Below, piece by piece: positions 59,077 through 59,747 of a stretch of DNA of 64,000 nucleotides. This stretch comes from Escherichia coli (lineage in GTDB: Bacteria; Pseudomonadota; Gammaproteobacteria; Enterobacterales; Enterobacteriaceae), in NCBI RefSeq assembly GCF_030013595.1, contig NZ_CP122768.1. One strand, 5' to 3'. Made by a program: the position numbers and the translations under genes. Positions within the stretch are counted from its first letter, which is position 1, and every line of letters begins with the position of its first letter. The notes beneath the pieces were generated by a model that saw only the letters and a program-made list of their open reading frames with translations, ran no database searches and was not told the DNA's origin.

Positions 59077-59747
59077 TTTGCGCACTCCTGACGTTTAGCA
59101 ACATATGCGGCTTGCCCTGAACACCGGGCACCACTGTATTGATGCTCATTTTCCATAGCCATTCCCTTTTGTTCATTACATCCATGTCAGTCTGAGACAG
59201 GCCTGAATCCTGTCAGCAAAGTATAAAACCTTACTTGCCTATGAATATCTACTGACTTTTCAGGAAAAAAGTCATGATTTGATAAAAATCATCAAACTCA
59301 AAAAAAAACCGCTACTATATTCTGAATATTCCGAATAGTTACGTAGATGAAAATACTTGTCACCGCCGCCACTTAATTTCGGTGGGGAATTATTTATTTC
59401 CGCATAATCATTCATGCATTATTTGAAACAATTAGTTTGTAAATAATATAAATTGATAACATATCAAATACATCAAAAATACCATTCACAGGCATTATTA
59501 ATATAGACATCAATATAGCAACATCAAATTCCAATTAGTAATAAGATATGCTTTTAAATTGCATGCAAATAATTTTAAATGAGCGTTTTTTGATACTTTA
59601 GAGTGTTTCCCACCCTTTAATATCACTGTGTAGAGTTGATATCACTACAACAGAAACATGCATGTCATTTGTTTACTTCTCTTTTTACTACAGAAAAATT
59701 TATCTATTTTTCTAAGCATCAGTGAAATACTCATAAAGGTAACTATT

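Follow-up and report, generated by a model that had tools for sequence, protein, structure and literature searches.

The anti-adaptor IraD shields RpoS from RssB/ClpXP and stabilises this general stress sigma factor after DNA damage and on entry into stationary phase. The primary mapping of the iraD promoters is reportedly that of Merrikh 2009b in J Bacteriol. The closest described system is the iraD control region of Escherichia coli K-12, in which two promoters (P1 and P2), CsrA binding, the translational coupling of the leader peptide idlP to iraD and the translation of three small ORFs have been demonstrated (Park 2017, PMC5574718; VanOrsdel 2018). Genetic effects of DnaA and SspA (bioRxiv 10.1101/2021.05.20.444958), H-NS binding (PMC3661553) and HusR binding (PMC12844172) have also been shown in K-12, and the region integrates ppGpp, CsrA, DnaA/RIDA, SspA, HusR and H-NS inputs, all of them published for that strain. 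A second related class is that of the promoter islands, AT-rich, H-NS-bound stretches beside horizontally acquired genes that hold many potential starts and show low productive transcription (PMC3661553); the list of 78 islands includes the yjiC/iraD region, with a length of 526 bp and a mark for H-NS binding (Panyukov and Ozoline 2013, PMC3661553, Table 1). In addition, leader ORFs coupled by a stop/start overlap and an SD hairpin have been described (Park 2017; PMC7652899), and idlP has both the ATGA overlap and a predicted SD hairpin. Unlike classical attenuation leader peptides, which depend on ribosome stalling, idlP is regulated by CsrA at the ribosome-binding site of the uORF.

The window analysed here, a stretch of 64,000 nucleotides of E. 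coli DNA, is 100% identical to the RefSeq record of E. coli 2012C-4221. Its iraD-yjiC gap (59077-59747, 671 bp, 32.5% GC) runs from the iraD ATG (59076) to the yjiC ATG (59748), and the same gap, as a 672-bp fragment, has been used as the 'iraD upstream region' in K-12 (bioRxiv 10.1101/2021.05.20.444958). Comparison with the K-12 map found every published sequence element at its expected position, including P1, P2, BS1-BS4, the SD, ATG and ATGA of idlP and the predicted SD hairpin. Moreover, the coordinates of Park 2017 convert exactly: the window sequence agrees with the G residues of the footprint, with the idlP ATG at -80 and the ATGA overlap, and with the reading frame at each of the four lacZ fusion junctions. 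The gap is thus the already known, experimentally dissected iraD control region of K-12 and adds no new biology; the window carries a strain-level allele, approximately 98% identical to K-12, whose 17 differing positions include the P1 spacer (59509), the HusR site (59315), a premature stop that leaves ytiC with 27 codons and six ytiD substitutions. The functional claims made below for this strain, known here from sequence alone, are transferred from K-12, and the same mechanisms probably operate in it. It is very likely that the gap is a two-part iraD control region, composed of a proximal and a distal module and placed back-to-back with yjiC. The flanking genes are as follows.

58684-59076, minus strand: iraD, 130-aa anti-adaptor (RefSeq; NCBIfam NF010726 IraD equivalog, 303 bits; Pfam GPW_gp25 match)
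59748-60578, plus strand: yjiC (DUF2686), 276 aa (annotation; Pfam PF10887, 502 bits)

The sequence-only reading had described a long AT-rich gap between the divergent genes iraD (minus strand) and yjiC (plus strand), which is confirmed by a GC content of 0.322 over 59086-59747 (662 bp) versus 0.494 for the 64-kb window. Only 1.5% of the 662-bp sliding windows of the 64-kb window are equally AT-rich, the window-wide GC minimum (0.296) falls within the gap at 59221, and the gap is among the three longest ORF-free gaps of the window. The A- and T-tracts mentioned in that reading are also real, with eight such runs of A or T, each five bases or longer. Its boundary has to be moved, and the gap starts at 59077 and not at 59086, given that the iraD start in RefSeq and in K-12 is the ATG at 59076 rather than the upstream GTG at 59085. 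The AT-richness is uneven: positions 59077-59214 have 48.6% GC and beyond the P2 start site the values drop to 29.6% and 26.9% in two segments, so that "very AT-rich" describes the part distal to the P2 start. The statement that the gap contains no ORF was mistaken, since about ten mechanical ORFs of 20-47 codons are found in it, and those on the iraD strand include the K-12 genes idlP (b4722), ytiD (b4721) and ytiC (b4720), annotated since 2018-19; the RefSeq record identical to the window calls idlP and two 'hypothetical proteins' in the gap. The suggestion that a small protein could be encoded there came closer, as all three small ORFs are translated in K-12 (Park 2017; VanOrsdel 2018), although they are already annotated and form part of the iraD P1/P2 leader instead of standing as genes of their own. 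What looks like a long AT-rich gap with no ORF can therefore be a dense, characterised leader with genes of fewer than 50 codons.

The elements of the proximal module and of the adjoining iraD start are listed below.

59213-59225, minus strand: promoter P2, -10 TATACT at 59225-59220, start A at 59213 (-137)
59152-59210, minus strand: CsrA sites BS1-BS4, with GGA at 59208-59210 (BS1), 59181-59183 (BS2), 59163-59165 (BS3) and 59152-59154 (BS4)
59149-59157, plus strand: putative DnaA box '-81', TTTTCCATA, exact sequence, overlapping the idlP start codon and ending at -81
59073-59156, minus strand: idlP (ORF27), 27-codon iraD leader peptide, annotated in the identical record and in K-12
59054-59092, minus strand: predicted iraD SD hairpin (MFE fold; consensus fold of eight Escherichia alleles)

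P2 is reported to be a sigma70/sigmaS promoter and the main promoter during exponential growth. Its start was located from Park 2017 (PMC5574718), 3 nt before the BS1 GGA and next to the beginning of the leader fusion at -138, and the TATACT hexamer sits 7 nt before the -137 start. The four CsrA sites follow in a sequence identical to that of K-12, in which binding and repression by CsrA have been established by gel shift, footprint, toeprint, PURExpress and lacZ fusions (Park 2017, PMC5574718), and the RNase T1-footprinted G residues (-112/-107/-106/-103, -90 to -84 and -78/-77) coincide exactly with G residues of the window. The GGA of BS3 is itself the SD of idlP. At the end of the leader, the idlP TGA (59075-59073) overlaps the iraD ATG (59076-59074) as ATGA, and in the predicted hairpin the GGA(G) pairs with UUC of iraD codons 5-6, in agreement with the SD-sequestering structure reported from structure mapping (Park 2017, PMC5574718). 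All pairs of this hairpin are kept in eight of eight alleles, and its bases are invariant, so that no covariation is possible. The P2 leader as a whole folds no more stably than shuffles (z 0.10).

In the mechanism that we consider for the proximal module (approximately 59069-59308), which comprises P2 and the 137-nt leader, CsrA bound to the GGA sites around the idlP ribosome-binding site would block idlP translation; because of the coupling, iraD translation would then also be blocked and the mRNA destabilised. Among the three small ORFs, only idlP has a demonstrated role in K-12. DnaA-ATP acting on the box across the idlP start may add further repression: in K-12, mutation of the box derepresses iraD and DnaA shifts the 672-bp fragment (bioRxiv 10.1101/2021.05.20.444958). 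Direct control by DnaA is nevertheless disputed, because DnaA ChIP-seq detected no binding at iraD (PMC11317965).

Conservation of the proximal module was high both within and beyond E. coli. The 240 bp at 59069-59308 are identical to K-12 and had no variable site among 12 alleles, versus a density of 0.08 elsewhere in the gap; under independence P is about 2e-9, a value to be taken as indicative only since the alleles had been picked to be diverse in the ytiD segment and related sequences cannot count as independent. At 99% identity or more, this block was matched in 4,899 genomes, an iraD coding segment of the same length in 1,031 and the ytiC/ytiD segment in 21. Across approximately 4,900 E. 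coli genomes the P2-CsrA-idlP block is almost monomorphic, and its conservation exceeds that of the protein under its control. In eight Escherichia alleles with an overall identity of about 75%, the idlP ORF and its ATGA overlap are intact (8/8), the BS2 and BS3 GGA motifs are invariant and the P2 -10 is conserved; E. albertii has lost BS1 and BS4. Although idlP is nucleotide-invariant in the 12 E. coli alleles, its peptide varies in mid-sequence across the two allele groups, which have 17 of 27 residues in common, and the nucleotide-constrained ends are conserved; this pattern fits a cis-acting role in which the act of translation would be what matters.

The distal module (approximately 59309-59747) contains the following elements.

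59493-59527, minus strand: promoter P1, -35 TTGATG at 59527-59522, 16-bp spacer, -10 TATATT at 59505-59500, start at about 59493-59494 (-417/-418)
59309-59324, no strand assigned: HusR (YnfL) binding sequence, CCGCTAGTATATTCTG in K-12, with C for G at 59315 in the window
59496-59747, no strand assigned: yjiC-proximal AT-rich spacer, 26.9% GC, presumed yjiC promoter and 5' UTR

P1 is reported as a sigma70 promoter and as the main promoter in late-log and stationary phase, with a start that precedes the P2 start by 280 nt and lies farther upstream than -413 (Park 2017, PMC5574718). A consensus scan recovered its hexamers (TTGATG-16-TATATT) at the predicted place; the spacer carries a SNP relative to K-12 (A for C at 59509, plus strand), and the -10 is not conserved in E. 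albertii. The expectation that iraD promoters lie on the minus strand of the gap was thus borne out by both published promoters, with starts at about 59493/4 and at 59213. Promoter prediction, which had been proposed as a check, performed unevenly: the hexamer scan listed P1 and missed P2, because the latter has no -35 match, and across the gap it gave four promoter-like sites versus 4.6 expected by chance. Since this simple scan found no excess of sites, the label of promoter island rests on the published PlatProm analysis. The region resembles the islands in its 27-30% GC beside the low-GC (0.35-0.44), patchily distributed yjiC, a gene that approximately 490 E. coli genomes lack, as do four other Escherichia lineages, and that several strains carry as a pseudogene. 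It differs from a silent island in having a productive, regulated P1 that drives a host regulatory gene. A scan of the genome collection for IraD returned Escherichia loci only, plus one contaminant contig.

The distal module would consist of H-NS-bound AT-rich DNA that came with, or evolved beside, yjiC, and it would supply a P1 that operates in stationary phase and can be induced by ppGpp and by DNA damage. It would also hold the HusR site, known with its sequence from gSELEX-chip (PMC12844172), and the gap presumably contains the yjiC promoter as well, as had been proposed. Transcripts from P1 would carry 280 nt more than those from P2, with ytiC and ytiD translated in the extra stretch without influence on iraD. 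The two modules evolve very differently. Homology to alleles from genomes without yjiC ends at 59340, and beyond -340 about 50% identity with E. albertii remains. In the alleles compared, the proximal 240 bp are conserved across Escherichia and the distal part (P1, ytiC and ytiD) is specific to E. coli, which describes an evolutionary composite, with an old Escherichia-wide module and a younger AT-rich add-on carrying P1. In the yjiC-proximal spacer there are 13 variable sites in 253 columns, and one 15-nt block (59567-59581, AAATGAGCGTTTTTT) is conserved in E. albertii.

Besides idlP, the P1-specific part of the leader contains two ORFs.

59272-59415, minus strand: ytiD-like ORF (ORF47), 47 codons, a PGAP 'hypothetical protein' corresponding to K-12 ytiD (b4721)
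59412-59495, minus strand: ytiC-like ORF, 27 codons, with TGA where K-12 (33 codons, b4720) has TGG

The alternative of a function in trans for the small proteins YtiC and YtiD, for instance in the DNA-damage or stationary-phase response, draws on their expression in K-12, where both are translated. A ytiD lacZ fusion is expressed (Park 2017, PMC5574718), and the SPA-tagged 33-aa product of ytiC has been detected under the name ytiB (VanOrsdel 2018). Additionally, ytiC is the most strongly AZT-induced gene of the genome (260x, compared with 33x for ytiD, 18x for idlP and 14x for iraD) and is co-transcribed with iraD (PMC11228462). The YtiC product is hydrophobic, as are many small proteins of membranes, and Pfam has a family for it, which the window ORF matches at 71 bits over positions 1-26 of 33 (PF23685, YtiC-like); NCBIfam has a model for neither ORF. 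The allelic data argue against such a role. Among the 12 alleles, ytiD shows 1 synonymous and 16 non-synonymous changes with ATG to ATA in 4, and ytiC shows 0 and 9 with nonsense alleles in 6, the window included, whereas in iraD 8 synonymous versus 9 non-synonymous changes amount to a significant synonymous excess. The window itself carries a rare ytiD-like allele with six amino-acid differences from K-12 YtiD (41 of 47 residues shared). E. albertii has no equivalent of either ORF, the ORF in the corresponding stretch using a different frame, both are absent where genomes lack yjiC, and their start-to-stop mutations leave iraD unaffected (Park 2017, PMC5574718). We regard functional YtiC and YtiD proteins as unlikely; ytiC and ytiD are probably translation by-products, and their evolution without protein-level constraint calls for caution over their status as genes. 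As to where ytiC begins, the in-frame internal ATG of the 'ORF23' of Park lies at 59462 within the ytiC-like ORF, and in the ribosome-profiling literature and supplements nothing decides between it and the ATG of the 33-codon form.

Under a second alternative, the 280-nt P1-specific leader would act as a functional RNA domain and govern how stable the P1 transcript is or how well it is translated, with the 5' end of this leader (UGCCUGUGAAUG, 59494-59483) pairing with 59244-59233 upstream of P2 and closing the ytiC/ytiD region. For the window and K-12 alleles alike, the predicted MFE of this leader lies 20 kcal/mol below that of shuffles, and the 12-bp closing helix is the same; the arms of the helix are invariant in the 12 alleles, the extreme 5' end of the P1 transcript takes part in it, and the signal weakens when the ends are trimmed. 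Yet the P1-P2 interval gives practically the same z-score on both strands (-4.7 and -4.6 on the opposite one), so that inverted repeats at the DNA level explain the signal equally well, and in E. albertii the signal is absent (z +1.9). The fold, which had initially suggested a structured RNA, was therefore rejected as RNA-specific evidence. Moreover, the structures predicted for the window and K-12 alleles disagree in their central part, the helix has no covariation, translation of ytiC and ytiD would unfold it, and by our own estimate a 12-nt complementarity would arise by chance roughly once in ten such sequences of 281 AT-rich nt. An RNA domain in the P1 leader is accordingly rather improbable, and the two-part control region remains the preferred reading.

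The self-complementarity excess is local and is accounted for, equally on both strands, by two palindromes upstream of P2.

59278-59296, no strand assigned: Pal-1, TTTGAT-n7-ATCAAA, centre at about -74 from the P2 start
59253-59274, no strand assigned: Pal-2, TGACTTTT-n6-AAAAGTCA, centre at -50.5 from the P2 start

In E. albertii the arms of Pal-1 are kept around an altered spacer, and the right arm of Pal-2 does not vary among the eight alleles; both palindromes may be regulator sites. An FNR site (TTGAT-n4-ATCAA) was considered for Pal-1 and set aside on account of its n7 spacing, and an IHF consensus does not fit the palindromes. The ATG of the 33-codon ytiC (59495-59493) coincides with the P1 start, and one could imagine an undescribed RNA or regulator switch in the P1-specific part, made of YtiC translated from a leaderless mRNA, the pairing of the first 12 nt and the two palindromes. 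Such a switch would set the IraD output from P1 versus P2 transcripts, and we give it little credence.

The weakest alternative, also raised by the sequence-only reading, is an independent small regulatory RNA, so far unannotated, that would have a promoter and a terminator of its own, and it is very improbable: the gap is long, its 252 bp adjoining yjiC (59496-59747) have no assigned function and the P1-P2 interval has the folding excess described above, but that excess is not strand-specific, the yjiC-side segment folds like shuffles (z -1.4), the iraD strand has no terminator, and the single terminator-like hairpin on the plus strand (59369-59385) is at chance level (1 versus 0.5 expected) with a weak 5-bp stem. 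A permissive E-value scan of 58500-60300 against Rfam gave chance-level matches only (snoRNA and CRISPR-repeat models), none reaching even half of its gathering score, the best being a eukaryotic snoRNA model at 22 bits versus a gathering score of 50. Besides, the supplements of an E. coli 3'-end mapping study report no 3' ends in the iraD leader, and the distal region is not conserved beyond E. coli, where it cannot be aligned. A GC-rich hairpin at 59363-59388 was considered separately and set aside, as variants among the 12 alleles break its candidate stems by inspection; this hotspot of variation is read as the decay of G/C positions that are free of constraint within AT-rich surroundings.

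The AT-rich region between iraD and yjiC is a real compositional feature, yet one that has been explained and annotated before and is already known. Over 59000-59800 the sequence is 100% identical to E. coli strain 2012C-4221 and was found in 4,890 of 5,426 complete genomes, mostly at 95-99% identity, and the gap is ~98% identical to K-12. The sequence-only reading had recognized the gap itself but started iraD at a GTG at 59085; in RefSeq and in K-12 the gene begins with the ATG at 59076, which sets the gap at 59077-59747 (671 bp). The strong AT-richness claimed for it (GC 0.325 vs 0.494 across the window) is real and above chance, because only 1.5% of 662-bp windows are equally AT-rich and the window-wide GC minimum falls inside the gap. 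This composition is uneven, with 48.6% GC in the 138 bp adjoining iraD and 27-30% in the remainder. If its coordinates are those of U00096.2, as we presume, with a 1,977-bp offset to U00096.3, a 'promoter island' described between yjiC and iraD corresponds roughly to 59213-59738, the AT-rich part. This 526-bp, H-NS-bound island was listed by Panyukov and Ozoline (2013; PMC3661553).

Features of the iraD-yjiC region (window coordinates)
58684-59076, minus strand, iraD, flanking gene
59748-60578, plus strand, yjiC, flanking gene
59156..59073, minus strand, idlP, iraD leader peptide ORF27, 27 codons
59415..59272, minus strand, ytiD-like ORF, 47 codons
59495..59412, minus strand, ytiC-like ORF, 27 codons in the window
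59225-59220, minus strand, P2 -10 TATACT, sequence at the published position
59527-59500, minus strand, P1 TTGATG-16-TATATT from a consensus scan, start near 59493-59494
59278-59296, palindrome Pal-1, TTTGAT-n7-ATCAAA, centre about -74 from the P2 start
59253-59274, palindrome Pal-2, TGACTTTT-n6-AAAAGTCA, centre -50.5 from the P2 start, beginning at the ytiD stop codon
59483-59494 (5' end of the P1 transcript) with 59233-59244 (just upstream of the P2 -10), 12-nt complementarity, 10 Watson-Crick and 2 G-U pairs

Positions published by Park et al. (2017; PMC5574718) were counted from the iraD ATG and converted to window coordinates, where they agree exactly with the sequence. The RNase T1-protected Gs of the CsrA sites BS2 (-112..-103), BS3 (-90..-84) and BS4 (-78/-77) coincide with G residues, the GGA of BS1 lies 3 nt past the A at -137 that is the P2 start (59213), idlP starts at -80 with its TGA overlapping the iraD ATG, and all four published lacZ fusion junctions keep their phase with respect to the frames of idlP, ytiD, ytiC and iraD. 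The expectation that the gap holds the iraD promoters on the minus strand is borne out by this match with the published map, P1 lying 280 nt upstream of P2. Binding of CsrA to the leader has been demonstrated to repress idlP translation; translation of iraD in turn hinges on that of idlP, by way of stop and start codons that overlap and a hairpin sequestering the Shine-Dalgarno (SD) sequence (Park et al., 2017; PMC5574718).

For the mechanism as a whole, control of iraD by two modules is very probable, and what others have demonstrated in K-12 is carried over to the window strain by sequence identity. The proximal module, comprising P2, the CsrA sites and idlP, would be the old, Escherichia-wide controller of iraD. 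P2 would yield a 137-nt leader on which CsrA, bound to BS2 and BS3, would obstruct ribosome binding at idlP; if idlP is not translated, the iraD SD would stay held in a hairpin, with no terminating ribosome reinitiating at the ATGA, so that no IraD would be made and the mRNA would decay. The distal AT-rich module, associated with the low-GC yjiC and probably H-NS-bound as in K-12, would add P1, which dominates following replication stress as well as in late-log and stationary phase, together with a HusR site and, presumably, the promoter of yjiC. The extra 280 nt of P1 leader would be translated in two short frames, apparently by-products. What the present analysis contributes is the division of the gap into two parts that evolve differently, together with the absence of protein-level constraint in ytiC and ytiD.

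A scan for IraD in one genome per species found relatives in Escherichia only. The order uxuR-yjiC-iraD, present in most E. coli and in E. albertii, has an iraD upstream gap of 654-672 bp, and the order with uxuR next to iraD and no yjiC, present in ~490 E. coli genomes and four other lineages, one of 407-417 bp; homology between the two ends at 59340 (-264). All eight Escherichia alleles (~75-83% overall identity) keep the 27-codon idlP, the ATGA overlap, the GGA motifs of BS2 and BS3, the P2 -10 and an invariant 24-nt block spanning the iraD start codon and its SD; E. albertii does not retain the weak sites BS1 and BS4. The SD-sequestering helix is likewise kept in 8/8 alleles by consensus folding, with no covariation, as its bases never vary. 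The ends of the idlP peptide, which overlap RNA signals, are conserved and its middle is variable (17 of 27 residues common to both allele groups), a pattern that fits a cis-acting role. Identity between E. coli and E. albertii is 0.89 in both the idlP and the P2 promoter segments and about 0.5 distal to -340; this comparison found no equivalents of ytiC or ytiD in E. albertii, nor is the P1 -10 conserved there. One 15-nt block at 59567-59581, AAATGAGCGTTTTTT (plus strand), is perfectly conserved between the two species within ~250 bp at otherwise ~50% identity; it is separated by ~170 nt from the downstream yjiC ATG and by ~85-100 nt from the downstream P1 start, and either yjiC or P1 may be regulated from it.

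Variation within the species was measured on 12 sampled diverse E. coli alleles. The density of variable sites was 0 in the 240 bp at 59069-59308 (P2, CsrA sites and idlP), 0.08 in the rest of the gap, 0.06 in the iraD coding sequence and 0.11 in ytiD. This block is almost monomorphic, with 4,899 of ~4,900 E. coli genomes of this architecture at no less than 99% identity; over an adjoining 240 bp within the iraD coding sequence, 1,031 genomes reach at least 99% identity. The leader block is more conserved than the protein under its control. A 251-bp ytiC/ytiD segment is at least 99% identical in only 21 genomes, and the window therefore carries a rare allele of it. A hotspot at 59365-59428, 64 bp of which 17 positions vary among the 12 alleles, falls on the overlap of the ytiC end and ytiD start, a GC-richer patch (CACCGCCGCCAC...GGTGGGG); the changes are mostly at G/C positions and do not preserve candidate hairpin pairs, and we read it as unconstrained G/C decay.

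The sequence-only reading had described the gap as having no ORF, which does not hold: it contains some ten mechanical ORFs, each 20-47 codons long, and K-12 MG1655 annotates three on the iraD strand, ytiC (b4720, 33 aa), ytiD (b4721, 47 aa) and idlP (b4722, 27 aa). In the RefSeq record identical to the window, idlP is named and the positions of ytiD and ytiC each carry a 'hypothetical protein'; the ytiC-like ORF matches the Pfam YtiC-like family. The suggestion of a small protein was consequently right as to presence, with three small ORFs, and wrong as to novelty. ORF23 (ytiC frame) and ORF47 (ytiD) are expressed without effect on iraD (Park et al., 2017; PMC5574718), and an SPA-tagged 33-aa YtiC product, then named ytiB, has been detected (VanOrsdel et al., 2018; PMC6001520). 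Changes in ytiD were 1 synonymous and 16 non-synonymous, with ATG replaced by ATA in 4/12 alleles; those in ytiC were 0 and 9, with a stop at codon 28 in half of the 12 alleles, the window included; those in iraD were 8 and 9, a significant synonymous excess (P = 0.027). From the variation and these counts, idlP is constrained at the nucleotide level, and ytiC and ytiD are translated yet without sign of protein-level constraint. The annotated 33-codon ytiC ATG (59493-59495) coincides with the published P1 start, and the 33-codon form would therefore be leaderless or come from another transcript; otherwise the product would be the 22-aa ORF23, starting at the in-frame internal ATG at 59462 used by Park et al. 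(2017; PMC5574718) in place of the 33-codon ATG.

The possibility of a small RNA found no support. The Rfam search gave chance-level matches only, no terminator-like site occurs on the iraD strand of the scanned stretch (58900-59900), and none of iraD, idlP, ytiC and ytiD is listed in the supplementary files of the E. coli 3'-end atlas. The P1-P2 interval does fold far better than shuffles (z -4.7, 0/200 as good; same result in K-12), which at first sight suggested a structured RNA, but the opposite strand gives z -4.6 and the E. albertii counterpart z +1.9, with no folding excess. The signal comes from Pal-1, Pal-2 and the 12-nt complementarity, and not from the ORF bodies; it is DNA-level self-complementarity, which regulator sites or RNA hairpins could cause, and no evidence for a separate sRNA. 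The arms of both palindromes are conserved across Escherichia alleles with differing spacers, and they may be regulator sites. The 12-nt helix is the closing helix of the fold predicted for the P1-specific leader, in the window allele as in that of K-12, and could have arisen by chance, with odds roughly estimated at 1 in 10. The plus strand has one weak terminator-like hairpin (59369-59385), at chance frequency, the sole such site downstream of hypT in the scanned stretch. The genes hypT (plus strand, ending at 58691) and iraD (minus strand, ending at 58684) are convergent and their 3' ends overlap by 8 bp (58684-58691), hence each transcript must run antisense into the other gene.

Further inputs have been reported. 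P1 and P2 are both AZT-inducible and repressed by DnaA-ATP, partly via the box TTTTCCATA at -81 (59149-59157), and SspA modulates mainly P2 (Sass et al.); direct DnaA input is disputed, since ChIP-seq did not detect the -81 site (PMC11317965). HusR (YnfL) binds CCGCTAGTATATTCTG in gSELEX (PMC12844172), a sequence located at 59309-59324. Two strain-specific SNPs were noted, C for G at 59315 in the HusR sequence and, within the 16-bp P1 spacer, A for C at 59509 on the plus strand (T for G when read on the strand of iraD). In AZT RNA-seq, no gene was induced more strongly than ytiC (260-fold), described as co-transcribed with iraD; the increase was 33-fold for ytiD, 18-fold for idlP, 14-fold for iraD and 11-fold for yjiC (PMC11228462). 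In these K-12 data ytiC far exceeds the overlapping ytiD, despite both lying between P1 and P2 (59272-59495) and being expected from the same transcript; the difference could stem from noisy counts on such very short genes, from an internal start, or from transcripts partly terminated or processed between the two.

The neighbouring yjiC is highly polymorphic (46 variable sites in the first 213 bp, 12 alleles); an O25:H4 strain and one other carry frameshifted copies, a third strain has a truncated one, and the ~490 genomes lack the gene. IS1 insertions lie in or beside the gap in strains SF10 (H17) and DAX4, the latter missing iraD and neighbouring genes. A 605-bp contig of a Bacillus coahuilensis draft assembly (locus L007, NZ_ABFU01000118.1) encodes an IraD at 99% identity to E. 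coli and is almost certainly E. coli contamination.
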